Source: Escherichia phage F2. Taken from it: DNA of 64,000 bases. The notes below the pieces were generated by a model. It had not been told where the DNA came from. It saw nothing but the letters and a program-made list of their open reading frames with translations, and did not search any database. The stretch lies in the sequence record NC_054913.1; one strand, written 5' to 3'. This document shows, one piece after another, positions 2,211-62,897 of this stretch. A program made the translations under genes and the position numbers. The number at the start of each line of letters is the position of its first letter. Positions within the stretch are counted from its first letter, which is position 1.

Positions 2211-2507
2211 ATGATTTTAACTGAACAGGAAACTATGGTTCTTCGTGAACGTATTAAAACTATTCTGTCTGTAGGCGTTCATTGTGTTGTATTTGAAAAG
2301 GCTAACGGTGAGGTACGCACTATGTTTGCTTCGCGCGATGAACTTGAAGTCAAATATGAAAATAACAATCCGGCAACAGAAGTTCGTTATGAACCTCGTG
2401 AATCAGTTCGAGCATTCGATACCAAGTTAGGTCAGTGGCGTTCTTTCCGCCTTGATAAAGTAATTTCGGTTGATGGTACTCCTGTAGAACGTTTGCTTCT
2501 TATGTAA
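2211..2507 (+). CDS. hypothetical protein (gene 31.x-like position)
   Basis: ORF with ATG at 2211 just after the cd stop; track start at 2199 is GTG. Confidence 0.5.
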   Translation: MILTEQETMVLRERIKTILSVGVHCVVFEKANGEVRTMFASRDELEVKYENNNPATEVRYEPRESVRAFDTKLGQWRSFRLDKVISVDGTPVERLLLM

Positions 2508-2534
2508 TATGCTTTACGAATAGTATGGTATTAT
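2508..2534 (+). promoter_or_regulatory. putative MotA-dependent middle promoter upstream of gene 31
   Basis: MotA-box-like TGCTTTA at 2510-2516 and TATTAT 12 bp downstream at 2529-2534. Confidence 0.45.
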
Positions 2535-2564
2535 TAATCTATCGTCAAACAACAAGGAAATAAG

Positions 2565-2897
2565 ATGTCTGAAGTACAACTCCCAATTCGTGCTGTTGGT
2601 GAATATGTCATTCTGGTTTCTGAACCCGCTCAAGCAGGTGATGAAGAAGTTACAGAATCAGGACTTGTGATTGGTAAACGTGTTCAAGGTGAAGTTCCTG
2701 AACTATGTGTAGTTCATTCTGTAGGTCCTGATGTTCCTGAAGGTTTTGTTGAAGTCGGTGATTTGACTCCACTACCAGTTGGACAAATTCGAAATGTTCC
2801 ACATCCATTTGTGGCTTTGGGACTTAAACAACCTAAAGAAATTAAACAGAAATTCGTAACATGCCACTATAAAGCTATTCCGTGTCTTTATAAGTGA
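2565..2897 (+). CDS. 31: gp31 co-chaperonin (GroES-like)
   Basis: 110 aa; near-collinear with T4 gp31 from recall ([34 protein letters not shown] ... [13 protein letters not shown]). Confidence 0.85.
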
Positions 2898-3021
2898 TAT
2901 AAATAACTATATGAAGAGAACACTCTTCTAAGCGGTAGCCTACAACTGAGAGACTTGTCGAAAGAAGGTGAAATTCAGACGAACGTGGCTACTAAATATT
3001 ATCTCGAATTGAGAATTTAAA

Positions 3022-3270
3022 ATGATTAAACAATTACAACACGCTCTTGAACTGCAACGAAACGCATGGAATAACGGTCACGAAAACTACGGTGCGTCAA
3101 TTGATGTTGAAGCCGAAGCACTGGAAATCCTGCGATATTTCAAACATCTGAATCCTGCTCAGGCTACTCTGGCTTCTGAACTGGAAGCTAAAGATGAATT
3201 GAAATATGCTAAGCCTCTGGCTTCTGCAGCACGCAAAGCAGTTCGTCATTTTGTTATTACCCTGAAGTAA
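3022..3270 (+). CDS. hypothetical protein (82 aa)
   Basis: ORF in the hyperplastic 30.x region; no motif recognised. Confidence 0.45.
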   Translation: MIKQLQHALELQRNAWNNGHENYGASIDVEAEALEILRYFKHLNPAQATLASELEAKDELKYAKPLASAARKAVRHFVITLK

Positions 3271-3292
3271 GTTAAATCGAGGAGCCGTCGAA

Positions 3293-3484
3293 TTGTCTGA
3301 TTATCGATTTGCGAATCGGTATGTTTTAGAAGTACCGCCCCGACAATTTTACGGTGTACCTCTTGAATGTTACTATCATGCGTCAGAAAAGTGTTATCTG
3401 TGTAAGTCTTGGTGGTATGATGACGAGGTTTATGGTTATCCTGTCGTTAAATATCCAAAACCTATGTTCCCCTTGAGGGCTTGA
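3293..3484 (+). CDS. hypothetical Cys/Tyr-rich small protein
   Basis: 63-codon ORF with TTG start preceded by GAGGAG; weak. Confidence 0.3.
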   Translation: MSDYRFANRYVLEVPPRQFYGVPLECYYHASEKCYLCKSWWYDDEVYGYPVVKYPKPMFPLRA

Positions 3485-3532
3485 GCAGGCCATGTCAATA
3501 AGTCCTGCATTTTCATTTAAAGAGAATTTATA

Positions 3533-3712
3533 ATGGCAAAACAAGCTAAAGCAAAGAAAGCAGTTGAAAAGAAAGTTGATGGTACCTCTAAACGCGCTGG
3601 ATACAAGCGTGGGTCGAACTCTCGTATTAATCAAACAGTTGAGAAGATCATGCGCAGAGCACGTGCAGTTCTTCGAGATGATGCTTCTCGTTTTGGAAAG
3701 GTTGTTGCATAA
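3533..3712 (+). CDS. small highly basic protein (59 aa), not in the ORF track
   Basis: ATG at 3533; translation MAKQAKAKKAVEKKVDGTSKRAGYKRGSNSRINQTVEKIMRRARAVLRDDASRFGKVVA; followed by a terminator hairpin. Confidence 0.45.
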   Translation: MAKQAKAKKAVEKKVDGTSKRAGYKRGSNSRINQTVEKIMRRARAVLRDDASRFGKVVA

Positions 3713-3717
3713 TTTTA

Positions 3718-3740
3718 GGGAGACTTCGGTCTCCCTTTTG
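3718..3740 (+). terminator. rho-independent terminator hairpin
   Basis: GGGAGAC-TTCG-GTCTCCC followed by TTTTG. Confidence 0.6.
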
Positions 3741-3772
3741 TGCGTTTAGGGCAGAAAAAGTTTAAAAAAGAT

Positions 3773-3801
3773 GTTTACTCTCCTGTAGGATGTGTTACTA
3801 T
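3773..3801 (+). promoter_or_regulatory. T4-type early promoter
   Basis: GTTTAC at 3773-3778, 17-bp spacer, TACTAT at 3796-3801; downstream block shared with the other early promoters. Confidence 0.55.
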
Positions 3802-3842
3802 AGACTTGTACCACCTAATCAATAAAACAATCGGAGAATAAA

Positions 3843-4211
3843 ATGAAAATCAATCTGAACTCATACATCAAATGTAAAGACCACGACGGTTATAAAGCTA
3901 TCGAAATTAAAGAATTCCAGTGGATGTTATACAAAGAGCAATTTGAGTTCGTAGGTTGTATGACCCCTGAAGGTCCTTCAGATGATTTCTCTTGGAAAAT
4001 TGTGTTAGCAAACTTTTTCACAGGTGACACATACGAATTAAAAACTATTATTACCGGTAAAATTCGTTCAGAAACATATGTTGACGAAGAAACTGGTTAC
4101 TCTGAAGATGTTACATGGTATCAAAATGGACGCATTACAGCAGATAACCTGATCGAAAAAATGAAAGCCAAAGGTGTTTTAAATTTAGACAATTGGATTA
4201 AAGTTGCATAA
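3843..4211 (+). CDS. hypothetical protein (ORFan, 122 aa)
   Basis: ORF with RBS GGAGAATAAAATG and its own early promoter. Confidence 0.55.
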   Translation: MKINLNSYIKCKDHDGYKAIEIKEFQWMLYKEQFEFVGCMTPEGPSDDFSWKIVLANFFTGDTYELKTIITGKIRSETYVDEETGYSEDVTWYQNGRITADNLIEKMKAKGVLNLDNWIKVA

Positions 4212-4215
4212 AACA

Positions 4216-4255
4216 GTTTACTTTGGTACAGGTTATGTTATTATAGACCTGTACC
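4216..4255 (+). promoter_or_regulatory. T4-type early promoter with stem-loop (PeSL-like)
   Basis: GTTTAC at 4216-4221, 17-bp spacer, TATTAT at 4239-4244; perfect 8-bp inverted repeat GGTACAGG (4225-4232) / CCTGTACC (4248-4255). Confidence 0.6.
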
Positions 4256-4285
4256 AACAAACAACTTAAACATCTGGAGAATAAA

Positions 4286-4651
4286 ATGAACTACACCAAC
4301 TTCGAACGCAAATATGTTTCTAACGGTATCGCTGGTTCTATCGATATGGTTTGTTTGTGGAAGCATAAAAATGGTTCAGTATGTGAAATTGAGCAGTGCA
4401 TGACTCCTAATTATGTTTATATGCGATTTGAAAATGGCATCACTGTTTCAATCACGATGGAAGGTTCCAACTTCAAAATTGCATTAGATGACGATTTCCG
4501 TCAACGTGATTTAGGTACTCATCCTTGCTGGAACGGTGTTAATCGTAAACTTCTGGTTAAAACTTGGATTCGTCATATCCTGAGTAACCGAGCTAAACCT
4601 GAACATCTCGAAGCAATCTTTGATGTAGTTCTTAACGAATTCGATATCTAA
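4286..4651 (+). CDS. hypothetical protein (ORFan, 121 aa)
   Basis: ORF with RBS GGAGAATAAAATG and its own promoter and hairpin. Confidence 0.55.
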   Translation: MNYTNFERKYVSNGIAGSIDMVCLWKHKNGSVCEIEQCMTPNYVYMRFENGITVSITMEGSNFKIALDDDFRQRDLGTHPCWNGVNRKLLVKTWIRHILSNRAKPEHLEAIFDVVLNEFDI

Positions 4652-4658
4652 TTTAACT

Positions 4659-4674
4659 GGGAGCTTCGGCTCCC
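4659..4674 (+). terminator. stable hairpin (putative terminator or RNA-stability element)
   Basis: GGGAGC-TTCG-GCTCCC; no T-run follows. Confidence 0.4.
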
Positions 4675-4686
4675 ACTGAGGAAATT

Positions 4687-5301
4687 ATGTTTAAAGTTAA
4701 TACTTTTTATAAAATGAATTTTAAAAATGGGGATATTACTCCACGCCTTAAAAACATGTTCTCATATGACCTTATCGAGCCTTTTGAAGTTTTAGAAGTT
4801 ACTGATGCCGGCTCGGTTTGTGAAATTAGAACTTCTGAAGGTAAAATTTATCAGGCAGGTGTTGGTAAATTCAGTAATTGTTTTACTTTAATATTCTCGA
4901 CCGATTTAGATGAGCATTTTATTGAATGTCCTAACCCTAAGGTCCACGAAGTTCCACATCAAGAAACTAAGAAAAATGGCCCGCACGAATATACGAAGGT
5001 TGAAACTCCTCACGGCGTGATGTGGCGTCATAACTCTCCTTTTGGAAGTAAAGGAACATTTGCTCAACCGTCTAAACCGTATGACGATGAAAAATACATC
5101 GTCGTCTTTTTATCTGAACAGGGTACTCAAGACAGTGGATGCCAACGTTCCGGTTTATTGAGTGAACTTGAAGCTCATAACCAAGCACGTGAATTCGTTG
5201 AGAAAAATCCTGGTTCTGAAGCTCTAGTCATGAAAGCAATTACTCAATATATCACTGCTCAACCTGTTGTTCATCCAGTAGAAATTAATTTCGTTAAGTA
5301 G
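4687..5301 (+). CDS. hypothetical protein (ORFan, 204 aa)
   Basis: long ORF with RBS GAGG before the ATG; no motif recognised. Confidence 0.55.
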   Translation: MFKVNTFYKMNFKNGDITPRLKNMFSYDLIEPFEVLEVTDAGSVCEIRTSEGKIYQAGVGKFSNCFTLIFSTDLDEHFIECPNPKVHEVPHQETKKNGPHEYTKVETPHGVMWRHNSPFGSKGTFAQPSKPYDDEKYIVVFLSEQGTQDSGCQRSGLLSELEAHNQAREFVEKNPGSEALVMKAITQYITAQPVVHPVEINFVK

Positions 5302-5331
5302 TTTACATCCAAGGACGGATTAGAGTATAAT
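5301..5331 (+). promoter_or_regulatory. putative early promoter
   Basis: GTTTAC at 5301-5306, TATAAT at 5326-5331; spacer 19 bp, slightly long. Confidence 0.4.
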
Positions 5332-5355
5332 GATTTCTTTAGTAAGTGGAAAAAT

Positions 5356-5553
5356 ATGAAATTTTTAATAGCACAAACAGTTCAATTAAAAGGTGTTGGA
5401 ATTCCTGGGGTGATTTTTAAAGTTCTCCCTGAATTTAAAACCGGCGCTGGAATTATCAATGAAGCGTATGCTGTTCAATGGGTTGATTGGACTTCTGACA
5501 TACGTATGGGTAAAGAGTTATCTCCTATTAAAGGGTTGAAACATGTTGAATAA
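5356..5553 (+). CDS. hypothetical small protein (65 aa)
   Basis: ORF; no motif. Confidence 0.4.
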   Translation: MKFLIAQTVQLKGVGIPGVIFKVLPEFKTGAGIINEAYAVQWVDWTSDIRMGKELSPIKGLKHVE

Positions 5554-5755
5554 ATTAATCCAGAAATTGTTTGGTACGGAAATGATCGAAGTTACTTATC
5601 GTGTAACAGACTGCTCGCCTATTCATCCACAGGATGAACCGTTTATCAAGACAATTAAAATGCTTAAAAATGACGGTGGTTTATCTATTGAAGACCGTCT
5701 GCCTAGTTACGGACATTGGGCTGATGTTGAAATTATAAGTGTTAAAGATGTCTGA
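5543..5755 (+). CDS. hypothetical small protein (70 aa)
   Basis: ORF overlapping the neighbours at both ends. Confidence 0.4.
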   Translation: MLNKLIQKLFGTEMIEVTYRVTDCSPIHPQDEPFIKTIKMLKNDGGLSIEDRLPSYGHWADVEIISVKDV

Positions 5756-6206
5756 ATTAGAAATAAGAAGCAATTTCAAATGGCCGTCATGCGCATTAAG
5801 TAATTTCGCCCAATGGCCTTTTGTTATGGATGGTATTCAATTCGGAGGACTTGAAGGATTTCTCCAAGGATGTAAGGTGAAAAATGTTGAACAACAAAGA
5901 CGTATATTTGGGCTGTCAGGACTGGCCGCACAGCAAGCTGGAAGGTCTTATGCAAGAGCTCAGGACCATGGGACTCTCTTCTGGTTAGGAGTTCCATTTT
6001 CAAGATACTCTGAAGCATGGAAAGAATTATATACAAATGCATATTTTGAAGCAGCGATCCAAAACAAGGGGTTTCGCGACGCCTTACAAGCCTCTAAAGG
6101 AAAAATTTTGAAGCACAGCATGGCCAGCCACCTAACAAAAGATGATACAATATTAACTGAAGCTGAATTTATTGATGTGTTAAACCTATTAAGAGACTCT
6201 TTATGA
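5748..6206 (+). CDS. NADAR-domain protein (YbiA-like; putative ADP-ribose or N-glycoside hydrolase)
   Basis: LSNFAQWP and DGIQFGGLEGFLQGCKV match the NADAR signature as recalled from E. coli YbiA (FSNFAAWP, DGKTWPTSEHYFQAQKF); ATG at 5748; stop overlaps next start (ATGA). Confidence 0.65.
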   Translation: MSELEIRSNFKWPSCALSNFAQWPFVMDGIQFGGLEGFLQGCKVKNVEQQRRIFGLSGLAAQQAGRSYARAQDHGTLFWLGVPFSRYSEAWKELYTNAYFEAAIQNKGFRDALQASKGKILKHSMASHLTKDDTILTEAEFIDVLNLLRDSL

Positions 6207-7018
6207 AGCCTACTATTTTGACTGATATTGATGGTGTATGTTTAAGCTGGCAATCTGGACTTCCTTATTTTGCCCAAAAATATAATCTTCCATTAGAACA
6301 TATTTTAAAAATGATTCAGGACGAAAAATTTATTTCTCCTGGTAAACTGTTCAATACCGACGATAACCTTGGTAAACAATTAATAGAAAAATATAATAGC
6401 TCTGATTTTATTCGTTACTTAGCGCCTTATTCGGATGCTCTTCGAGTTATCAATAAACTAAAAGAAGACTATAATTTTGTAGCCGTGACGGCGCTAGGTG
6501 ATTCAATTGATGCTCGATTGAATAGACAATTTAATTTGAATGCTTTGTTCCCAGGCGCTTTTTCTGAAGTAATGATGTGTGGTCATGATTCGTCAAAGGA
6601 ACAATTATTTGAACTAGCTAAAACAAAATATAACGTGATTTGTTACGTTGACGATTTAGCTCATCACTGTGACCATGCGGCAGAAATTCTTAATGTACCG
6701 ATTTATTGGTTGGCTCGTGGTGAACGTGATGATATTCCTCGCACTGCACAACGTGTACACACGTGGGATGATATTGAATCTCGTTTGGTTTCACCCGAGC
6801 ATAATTCAGATTCAGATCGTGAAGACCTTTTAAAACGATTGGCGGATTTGCTTAAAGAATCTGGTGCAACAAGTCCAGGTGCATGGCCTAATCAAATTGG
6901 CGCTCCGTCGAATCCGTATACCTGGCGAAACCAAGGACCGACTGATATGCAGCCATGGTGGACGATTCAAAACTTTCCTTTAGATTCGTCCAAATGGACT
7001 TGGTCTACAAATTGTTAA
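6203..7018 (+). CDS. HAD-superfamily phosphatase (5'(3')-deoxyribonucleotidase-like) with a Trp-rich C-terminal extension
   Basis: HAD motifs DIDGV (motif I), VAVTAL (II), conserved Lys, YVDD (IV); C-terminal ~80 aa unrelated and W-rich. Confidence 0.6.
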   Translation: MKPTILTDIDGVCLSWQSGLPYFAQKYNLPLEHILKMIQDEKFISPGKLFNTDDNLGKQLIEKYNSSDFIRYLAPYSDALRVINKLKEDYNFVAVTALGDSIDARLNRQFNLNALFPGAFSEVMMCGHDSSKEQLFELAKTKYNVICYVDDLAHHCDHAAEILNVPIYWLARGERDDIPRTAQRVHTWDDIESRLVSPEHNSDSDREDLLKRLADLLKESGATSPGAWPNQIGAPSNPYTWRNQGPTDMQPWWTIQNFPLDSSKWTWSTNC

Positions 7019-62670: not shown

Positions 62671-62745
62671 GGCCCTGTAGCTCAATGGGAGAGCTGTCAG
62701 CTCATAACTGATAGGTAGCTGGATCGAAACCAGCCAGGGCCACCA
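62671..62745 (+). tRNA. tRNA with CAU anticodon (Met, or lysidine-modified Ile2)
   Basis: manual cloverleaf: acceptor GGCCCTG/CAGGGCC, D arm GCTC/GAGC, anticodon loop CTCATAA, T arm GCTGG-ATCGAAA-CCAGC, encoded CCA. Confidence 0.8.
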
Positions 62746-62751
62746 AACAAA

Positions 62752-62823
62752 TGGTGCATCGTATAAAGGTTATTACGGGGAGCTGTTAACTCCTTTATCT
62801 TGGTTCGAGTCCAAGTGCGCCAG
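62752..62823 (+). tRNA. tRNA-Asn (GUU anticodon), putative
   Basis: manual fold: acceptor TGGTGCA/TGCGCCA with one G-U pair, anticodon loop CTGTTAA, T arm CTTGG-TTCGAGT-CCAAG; D stem has one mismatch. Confidence 0.55.
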
Positions 62824-62868
62824 TAATTTAAACGAAGTAAATTAAGTGCTCTATCCAAATAATAAATA

Positions 62869-62887
62869 CTCCTATATTTTATAGGAG
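62869..62887 (+). promoter_or_regulatory. RBS-sequestering hairpin upstream of the endonuclease gene
   Basis: CTCCTATA-TTT-TATAGGAG perfect 8-bp stem containing the Shine-Dalgarno GGAG; AATAAATA late-promoter-like box at 62861-62868. Confidence 0.5.
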
Positions 62888-62897
62888 ATAATTGGTA

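Follow-up and report, generated by a model that had tools for sequence, protein, structure and literature searches.

The rIII/30.9-30.4 region of Escherichia phage F2 as a probable T4-type accessory cluster organised by PeSL-type cassettes, with candidate structured RNAs in the spacers around rIII

What are the small open reading frames (ORFs) that lie between gene 31 and the NADAR gene of Escherichia phage F2, and what explains their arrangement? The window, that is the whole stretch of DNA analysed here, covers 64 kb of sequence record NC_054913.1, and the cluster in question occupies its positions 3022-5755 (2.7 kb). A sequence-only reading had described this cluster as a hyperplastic early region of ORFans exchanged one by one as cassettes. 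The answer favoured here, to which a probability of about 85% is given, is that 3022-5755 corresponds to the T4-type rIII/30.9-30.4 accessory cluster of Mosigvirus, a hyperplastic region organised by PeSL-type cassettes. The idea of hyperplastic regions and PeSLs belongs to Arbiol et al. 2010 (PMC2839356) and Comeau et al. 2014 (PMC4122927), and since both the gene cluster and this picture of its cassette architecture have already been published, the result is the rediscovery of a textbook locus; any novelty would lie in the RNA structures of the spacers alone.

Over 2500-6300, identity is 99.4% to Escherichia phage vB_EcoM_JQD51 and 98.6% to phage HX01, and matches occur in 872 phage records, almost all from T4-type enterobacterial phages. 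The nearest annotated relatives are members of Mosigvirus (RB69 group of the T4-type coliphages). The early-transcribed strand is the + strand of the window, on which the order is cd.3, cd.2, an AroG-like gene, cd, 31.1, 31, rIII, 30.9 and so on down to 30.1, and the DNA ligase gene 30. Setting the AroG-like gene aside, this order is shared with T4 and RB69, and the same synteny is found in the annotations of ATK47, mar005P1 and JS98. The cluster is placed between gene 31 and 30.3/30.2/30.1/gene 30, all of them on the early-transcribed strand, and from gene 31 to 30.3 the gene order and orientation are those of T4. Eight + strand ORFs (82, 63, 59, 122, 121, 204, 65 and 70 amino acids) are found in this interval, and they are listed here together with the two flanking genes (identities are at the amino acid level unless stated):

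2565-2897, + strand: gene 31, GroES-like co-chaperonin, upstream flank; annotated in relatives, 100% identical to RB69 gp31 and 96% to T4
3022-3270, + strand: rIII, lysis-inhibition accessory protein, 82 amino acids; phrog_1457 'lysis inhibition', E 2.6e-43; 93% identical to T4
3293-3484, + strand: unnamed ORF of 63 amino acids with a TTG start, considered spurious, overlapping the RNA modules A, B and C1 described below; no family match
3533-3712, + strand: 30.9, 59 amino acids, very basic; phrog_1427; 96% identical to T4 (95% in nucleotides)
3843-4211, + strand: 30.8, 122 amino acids, fast-evolving; PF06019, E 6.7e-44
4286-4651, + strand: 30.7, 121 amino acids, highly conserved; PF06919, E 1.3e-51
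4687-5301, + strand: two-domain gene of 204 amino acids in the 30.6 slot; phrog_17531
5356-5553, + strand: 30.5, 65 amino acids; phrog_1690; 64% identical to T4 30.5
5543-5755, + strand: 30.4, 70 amino acids, diverging; phrog_2042; 49% identical to T4 and 74% to RB69
5748-6206, + strand: 30.3/AdfN, NADAR DNA ADP-ribosylglycohydrolase, downstream flank; PF08010, E 4.2e-69; 96% identical to T4

The identities of these genes are established directly. All eight small ORFs of 59-204 amino acids announced by the sequence-only reading are present, but the one of 63 amino acids is spurious, so that the cluster consists of rIII, 30.9, 30.8, 30.7, the 204-aa gene, 30.5 and 30.4. The absence of recognisable motifs and the name ORFan do not hold, given that seven of the eight ORFs match Pfam or PHROG families, with only the 63-aa ORF matching nothing, and that these seven are named or family-assigned phage genes whose families are each represented in between about 120 and about 1,000 phage records. 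Homology to the corresponding T4 gene was found for rIII, 30.9, 30.8, 30.7, 30.5 and 30.4, and it was found neither for the 204-aa ORF, compared with T4 30.6, nor for the 63-aa ORF. With its 82 amino acids and 93% identity to T4 RIII, the first protein has the size and homology of the RIII antiholin. For 30.9, tblastn matches were obtained in 1,005 phage records, including one genus of Klebsiella phages (Jiaodavirus) in which identity reaches 95%. 30.7 is 93-95% identical in T4, T2, RB69 and JS98, whereas 30.8 reaches only 37% with T4 and 57% with RB69 in the midst of neighbours that are 94-100% identical.

How did such a mixture of conserved and divergent genes arise? The comparison with T4, gene by gene along the strand and beyond both ends of the cluster, is as follows (amino acid identity, then nucleotide identity):

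31.1: 44%, 64%
31: 96%, 89%
rIII: 93%, 88%
30.9: 96%, 95%
30.8: 37%, 65%
30.7: 94%, 87%
30.5: 64%, 72%
30.4: 49%, 64%
30.3: 96%, 89%
30.2: 69%, 74%
30.1: 58%, 66%
gene 30 (ligase): 63%, 69%

Genes 31, rIII, 30.9, 30.7 and 30.3 are 87-95% identical to T4 in nucleotides, against 69% for the essential ligase. Because this baseline is near 69%, the 87-95% segments seem to be best explained by recent exchange between genera, to which strong purifying selection may contribute. Presence and absence follow a similar pattern: 30.8 is missing from T2 and S16, 30.5 is missing from RB69, phiC120, T2 and PM2, and in S16 and PM2 other genes occupy slots of the cluster, with rIII, 30.9, 30.7, 30.2 and gene 30 acting as anchor genes among the relatives. 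In the 30.6 slot the replacement is exact. Homology to phages of the 30.6 type runs through the stem-loop, the Shine-Dalgarno sequence and ATG-TTT, then stops, and is picked up again at the 30.5 ATG; the promoter at 5302 arrives with the new segment. This promoter occurs only together with the 204-aa cassette; in T4 and JS98, 30.6 and 30.5 overlap (TAATG) with no spacer between them. The exchange of the 204-aa gene, as a truly variable cassette, is supported by these sequence junctions. The plasticity proposed for the locus, with cassettes exchanged individually, agrees with this gene-by-gene alternation of T4 identity and with the exact swap of the 30.6 slot at shared regulatory sequence.

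The comparison of synteny with related phages, suggested as a check together with the sequence-only reading, identifies 30.8, the 30.6 slot, 30.5 and 30.4 as the variable slots and 30.9 and 30.7 as near-invariant genes. The value of the map lies in this separation, as the variable slots point to the likely sites of host-specific adaptation. The map also reveals a full-length AdfN in the present phage, unlike RB69. On the other hand, the proximity of the region to the first injected DNA, which had also been invoked, does not stand: the genomes of the T4 group show circular permutation and terminal redundancy (PMC4122927), and therefore no locus consistently enters the cell first.

The 204-aa gene itself is carried by about 112 Mosigvirus records and was not found in T4, T2, RB69, JS98, S16, PM2 or phiC120. 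Its C-terminal domain occurs elsewhere as stand-alone phage proteins of 118-152 amino acids, such as '30.6A' of SP18, and its N-terminus has a weak sequence match to a KDM4A chain (E 0.16). Just 8 representatives of distant homologues were obtained among 1.84 billion sequences, and similarity to T4 30.6 was not found. The AlphaFold2 (AF2) model of this protein was discarded as a search query (pLDDT 53, pTM 0.34).

If genes are exchanged one by one, which sequences delimit them? The early-promoter consensus published for T4/PST PeSLs (TTTACW-N17-TAYWAT; PMC4122927) was scanned as TTTACW-N16-18-TAYWAT. In the 64 kb it matches nine times on the + strand and once on the - strand, compared with 0.44 +/- 0.69 matches per strand in simulated sequence, and three of the nine + strand matches (3774, 4217 and 5302) are inside the cluster, each one in the spacer directly 5' of a gene (30.8, 30.7 and 30.5, respectively), with a Shine-Dalgarno sequence and a start codon after it. 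An own early promoter of this consensus was not found for rIII, 30.9, the 204-aa ORF or 30.4. A generic sigma-70 scan was uninformative (19 sites against 20.9 in shuffled sequences). The transcription signals of the cluster are:

2898-2905, + strand: late-promoter consensus TATAAATA, exact match right after the stop codon of gene 31 and upstream of rIII
3717-3740, + strand: terminator of the rIII-30.9 unit, GGGAGAC-UUCG-GUCUCCC plus a run of U; -14.1 kcal/mol, z -3.0; annotated as terminator in ATK47
3774-3801, + strand: early promoter of 30.8, TTTACT-N16-TACTAT, PeSL consensus
4217-4255, + strand: early promoter of 30.7, TTTACT-N16-TATTAT (4217-4244), PeSL consensus, in a segment with a fold of -19.5 kcal/mol, z -3.15
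4658-4675, + strand: GC stem-loop UGGGAGC-UUCG-GCUCCCA after 30.7, lacking a run of U; -13.5 kcal/mol
5302-5331, + strand: early promoter before 30.5, TTTACA-N18-TATAAT, consensus

The late promoter TATAAATA is kept in T4, RB69, ATK47, mar005P1, S16, PM2, ABTN and CW742. The terminator at 3717-3740, whose stem covaries in T4, doubles as the stem-loop part of the PeSL that precedes 30.8. The stem-loop at 4658-4675 is the upstream edge of the variable 30.6 slot, and its stem covaries in T4, T2 and JS98. A 9-bp inverted repeat, GGTACAGGT/ACCTGTACC (4225-4233 / 4247-4255), spans the -10 box of the 30.7 promoter. The Shine-Dalgarno sequences of 30.8 (3833-3836, a RegB-type site) and 30.7 (4275-4278) both read GGAG, and within the cluster these are the only two genes whose ribosome-binding site contains this motif. 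The regions upstream of 30.8 and 30.7 are about 70% identical along about 80 nt, including promoter, leader, GGAG Shine-Dalgarno and 'AATAAAATGAA', although the proteins themselves are unrelated (hhalign probability 0.1). A paralogy of 30.8 and 30.7, suggested by a shared 'CMTP' and by this upstream DNA, was considered and rejected (BLASTP E 0.21, besides the same hhalign result), and 'CMTP' is not conserved across the 30.7 family.

The elements resemble the published PeSL cassettes (PMC2839356, PMC4122927) in their AT-rich stretch, the TTTACW-N17-TAYWAT promoter, the Shine-Dalgarno sequence, the start codon and, in front of 30.8, the upstream stem-loop, and also in that they adjoin indels and gene replacements between close relatives, namely the replacement in the 30.6 slot and the gain or loss of 30.5 and 30.8. 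With regard to T4, the terminator after 30.9 and the stem-loop after 30.7 are found in both phages; the present phage differs by the unrelated 204-aa gene and the extra early promoter in the 30.6 slot, and by a spacer after rIII that does not contain module X (see below) and retains 51 bp lost in T4. The claim that several of the ORFs have a promoter and a terminator of their own is consequently upheld in part, as early promoters do precede 30.8, 30.7 and 30.5, but there is a single true terminator plus stem-loops and not one for every ORF.

For the genes preceding gene 30 in T4-related phages, Truncaite et al. 2006 (Virology 344:378) are reported to have mapped strong early promoters, RegB sites, a stem-loop and a rho-independent terminator, conserved in 16 T4-type phages; the same elements are seen in the present phage.

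Several points weigh against the proposed identification and organisation of the cluster. The complete canonical layout, with a stem-loop just 5' of the promoter, is found only before 30.8 (the terminator 3717-3740), and the other elements are partial ('half') PeSLs: at 30.7 the inverted repeat overlaps the promoter, and at the 30.6 slot stem-loop and promoter flank the gene on opposite sides, no stem-loop being seen upstream of the 30.5 promoter except the one on the far side of the 204-aa gene. Promoter activity, early timing, termination and RegB cleavage in the present phage are deduced from the sequence and from work on T4. In 31, rIII, 30.9, 30.7 and 30.3, strong purifying selection could account for part of the high identity between T4 and Mosigvirus, and a function has been demonstrated for only two of the seven proteins.

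The cluster would then work as follows. rIII and 30.9 would form one transcription unit, read from upstream promoters that include the late promoter at 2898 and ending at 3717-3740, whereas 30.8 and 30.7 would each be restarted by an early promoter of their own, with a GGAG of the kind that the phage nuclease RegB cleaves; such a combination would give a burst of expression just after infection and then a quick shut-off. The stem-loop after 30.7 and the third early promoter would bracket the variable 30.6 slot. A cassette would be made up of stem-loop or terminator, early promoter, Shine-Dalgarno sequence and start codon, and single genes or alleles could be swapped independently because these conserved regulatory sequences would serve as patches of homology for recombination between co-infecting phages. 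The encoded proteins would be dispensable accessory factors that bind host or phage proteins (holin and S1 in the case of rIII, Ppk in the case of 30.5), and the neighbouring 30.3 (AdfN) would differ in its mode of action, being an enzyme that removes ADP-ribose from DNA.

Two observations concern promoter-like sequences outside the cluster. A site resembling a middle promoter with a MotA box (TATGCTTTA...TATTAT) was detected by pattern matching at 2508-2534, upstream of gene 31. Besides, six further + strand matches to the PeSL consensus are located at 222, 11119, 23321, 26175, 60795 and 61595, and most of them have the -10 box TACTAT after GTGT or GTGA; they could mark other cassette boundaries.

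Which functions can be assigned to the genes of the cluster? What can be said comes from the literature. RIII is a cytoplasmic antiholin with the cytoplasmic domain of holin T as its binding partner; it stabilises lysis inhibition, and it also binds ribosomal protein S1, by which the S1-dependent activation of RegB is blocked (PMC9409239); the T4 30.7 mRNA is a known substrate of RegB (PMC9409239). T4 30.5 binds polyphosphate kinase (Ppk) and is one trigger of the bNACHT11 defence (bioRxiv 10.1101/2024.12.17.629029). 30.3 is AdfN, a NADAR enzyme that strips the ADP-ribosylation made by DarT1 from DNA and so counteracts DarTG1, the RB69 allele being truncated (PMC11257639). The present phage is predicted to be resistant to DarTG1, since it has a full-length 30.3/AdfN allele, unlike RB69, whose allele is frameshifted. 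The mechanically called ORF of 30.3 starts at GTG 5739, and relatives are annotated from ATG 5748, which overlaps the stop codon of 30.4. The HIDEN-SEQ supplement scores T4 genes 30 and 31 as essential on E. coli K-12, and 30.1-30.9 and rIII as non-essential. The expectation that host-takeover and anti-defence functions concentrate here fits these published roles of rIII (holin, S1), T4 30.5 (Ppk, bNACHT11) and 30.3 (anti-DarTG1).

As a working inference, 30.9, 30.8, 30.7, the 204-aa protein and 30.4 may be small, dispensable proteins that modulate host physiology or immunity by binding other proteins; diversifying pressure seems to act on 30.8 and 30.4, and strong constraint on 30.9 and 30.7. 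It could be argued further that the ORFs are novel ORFans encoding undiscovered anti-defence or host-takeover effectors, exchanged cassette by cassette. The rich context speaks in that direction (AdfN is adjacent, bNACHT11 senses T4 30.5, which binds Ppk, and rIII binds S1), as do the non-essentiality of the genes in T4 on K-12, the fast evolution of 30.8 and 30.4 amid conserved neighbours, which would be expected of interfaces in an arms race, and the restriction of the 204-aa gene to one genus. This proposal is nevertheless rather unlikely. Seven of the eight ORFs belong to the widely distributed phage families mentioned above, two of them with Pfam families, PADLOC and NCBIfam profiles (defence and anti-defence families included) gave zero matches for any ORF of the cluster, and an anti-defence role of 30.9, 30.8, 30.7, the 204-aa protein and 30.4 remains putative. 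Searches by sequence for relatives of solved structure (PDB) found none for these five proteins. Structure prediction, which had been recommended as a check, was of partial help: the AF2 model of 30.7 is usable (pLDDT 80.8; a seven-strand sheet and two C-terminal helices), but the structural search gave no informative neighbour, and the model of the 204-aa protein was too poor. An accessory cluster of known phage families is the reading retained.

A different question is raised by the gaps on both sides of rIII. The spacer between rIII and 30.9, of 153-377 bp, is present in every Tevenvirinae genus sampled, and it is built of short conserved modules whose order differs between genera. Three modules show covariation: Y, which in the present phage is in the spacer between 31 and rIII, A and C1. 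The elements are:

2934-2993, + strand: module Y, in the 31/rIII spacer, predicted by RNAalifold as a three-tier rod with conserved loops UACAAC, GAAA and GAACGU
3279-3362, + strand: module A, predicted long interrupted helix with a hairpin cap; 25 predicted pairs, 4 with compensatory double changes
3371-3412, + strand: module B
3418-3464, + strand: module C1, candidate H-type pseudoknot; helix 1 at 3418-3428/3440-3449, helix 2 at 3431-3435/3461-3464
3469-3480, + strand: hairpin C2, following C1
3485-3518, + strand: hairpin GCAGG...CCTGC with a U-rich tail, just 5' of the ribosome-binding site of 30.9; its stem covaries in S16 (ACTGG...CCAGT)
phiWec188 L026 401-600 and PsgM04F L010 4463-4662: copy of modules X, A and B in a tRNA spacer, on the tRNA strand

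Eight of the 18 predicted pairs of module Y have compensatory double changes (RNAalifold, 6 sequences). A covariance model finds one copy of it per genome, which in Klebsiella KP179 and Serratia WSPA lies directly upstream of 30.9, in the position taken in the present phage by the hairpin at 3485-3518. This hairpin may serve as an attenuator or as a stability element. The 3' half of Y is overlapped by a weak sigma-70-like site (2974-3002).

The alignment of C1 comprises 10 sequences from seven genera. Its 15 pairs, six of them with double changes, are formed in 87.8% of the cells, against 23-50% with slid partners, and its covariation score of 0.333 compares with at most 0.077, the observed value being reached in 0 of 500 shuffles; these figures refer to a structure that was drawn by eye from the very sequences later scored, and in the T-even phages helix 2 is poorly paired. 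Across five genera, helix 2 appears as five different pairs of complementary sequences.

The same DNA contains the 63-aa ORF, and the spacer could be read as protein-coding, with 3293-3484 as a real small gene. The frame of 63 codons is indeed open in the present phage and a 'hypothetical protein' is annotated in the spacer of some deposited relatives, but the ORF starts with TTG, and 1-, 5- and 6-bp indels, some of them not multiples of three, break the frame in RB69, ATK47 and mar005P1, while T4 does without 51 bp of it. The DNA under the ORF is nonetheless 74-94% identical across 774 records. Moreover, the substitutions are compensatory in the helices and not synonymous in the codons, and the same sequence is found between tRNA genes of another phage family. 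That the spacer encodes a protein is accordingly very improbable, and because the ORF has no family match and its frame is broken where the DNA is conserved, it is considered, from these comparisons, not a conserved gene and to lie on conserved non-coding sequence.

The copy in the other phage family bears on the nature of the modules. Both phiWec188 and phiWec190, which belong to Phapecoctavirus, have a 200-bp spacer between tRNA-Gln and tRNA-Pro that is filled by modules X, A and B, on the strand of the tRNA genes, and the same arrangement is found in the near-identical 'Pseudomonas' phage PsgM04F, with about 83% identity to module A of the window. As this copy fills a tRNA spacer on the tRNA strand, it argues for a role at the RNA level and for horizontal movement between phage families. 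With respect to PsgM04F, it was observed that the stretch containing the tRNA spacer is 99% identical to E. coli phages, and its host label may be doubtful.

Could the modules act instead as DNA, in the form of recombination hot-spots, origin-like repeats or patches of homology? An 'ori type 2 repeat' is annotated just upstream of 30.9 in ATK47, the order of the modules is shuffled between genera and one of them is shared with an unrelated family, as mobile DNA would be, and the PeSL model itself invokes DNA recombination at motifs of this kind. The details of the helices fit this explanation badly: pairs of the G-U type (G-T in DNA) are tolerated on the + strand only, and a pseudoknot with covarying crossing helices is typical of RNA. 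Furthermore, all modules are on the transcribed strand inside transcription units, and the Phapecoctavirus copy is co-oriented with its flanking tRNA genes. A function purely at the DNA level is thus regarded as improbable.

It is put forward, tentatively and with somewhat less than even confidence, that the gaps flanking rIII hold undescribed functional structured RNAs (Y, A, C1 and small hairpins) in at least seven Tevenvirinae genera, in shuffled order, with X, A and B occurring also in Phapecoctavirus. They could be processed small RNAs or operators controlling rIII and 30.9, and the very basic 30.9 protein, ribosomal protein S1 or the RegB/RNase E machinery would be candidates to bind them. 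If true, such binding would link the spacer RNAs to the known rIII-S1-RegB circuit, and, if functional, the RNAs flanking rIII would be phage regulatory or stable RNAs of a new class, beside a gene linked to S1 and to mRNA decay.

Among the conserved structured RNAs of T-even phages are a cis-acting pseudoknot in the leader of the T4 gene 32 mRNA and, beside tRNA genes, the small stable RNAs rnaC and rnaD. The pseudoknot C1 and the copy of X, A and B in the tRNA spacer are similar to them in kind; the locus differs, and there is neither sequence similarity to rnaC/rnaD nor an Rfam family. Homology of the spacer modules to T4 rnaC/rnaD was considered and dropped, as no similarity was found. No relevant Rfam match was obtained, either in the window (E up to 5) or in five related loci (E up to 1). 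BLAST found no further spacer copies in the window, and a pattern scan of IMG/VR for more diverse copies returned 8 loci only, all T4-like.

Some minor observations on the spacers, and on the tRNA genes and metabolic gene located elsewhere in the window, complete the description. There is a small hairpin after gene 31, and the Shine-Dalgarno sequence of rIII is inside a small hairpin, TCTC-GAATT-GAGA, at 3002-3014. An analogous CCTC-ATTT-GAGG at the same place in other genera suggests that translation of rIII may be under structural control. In phages of three genera, module B of the rIII/30.9 spacer gives way to about 150 bp of inserted sequence (GGCAAGTGCATGCTACCCCGAGG...AACAGATAAG): JS98 (L007, about 4600-4760), phiC120 (L011) and KP179 (L020, about 610-760). 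ARAGORN detected no tRNA or tRNA remnant in the inserts of JS98 and phiC120, and the insert has no Rfam match.

The tRNA cluster of the window (Met, Asn, Arg) is at 62671-63624, with an ORF between tRNA-Asn and tRNA-Arg, where T4 has the homing endonuclease gene segB; inside the window, no rnaC/rnaD-like sequence was seen downstream of tRNA-Arg. Finally, the AroG-like gene at 636-1628, between cd.2 and cd, encodes an AroG-type DAHP synthase (phospho-2-dehydro-3-deoxyheptonate aldolase) of 330 amino acids. It is absent from T4, T2, RB69 and mar005P1 and present in ATK47 and phiC120, being a variably present auxiliary metabolic gene of the shikimate pathway.

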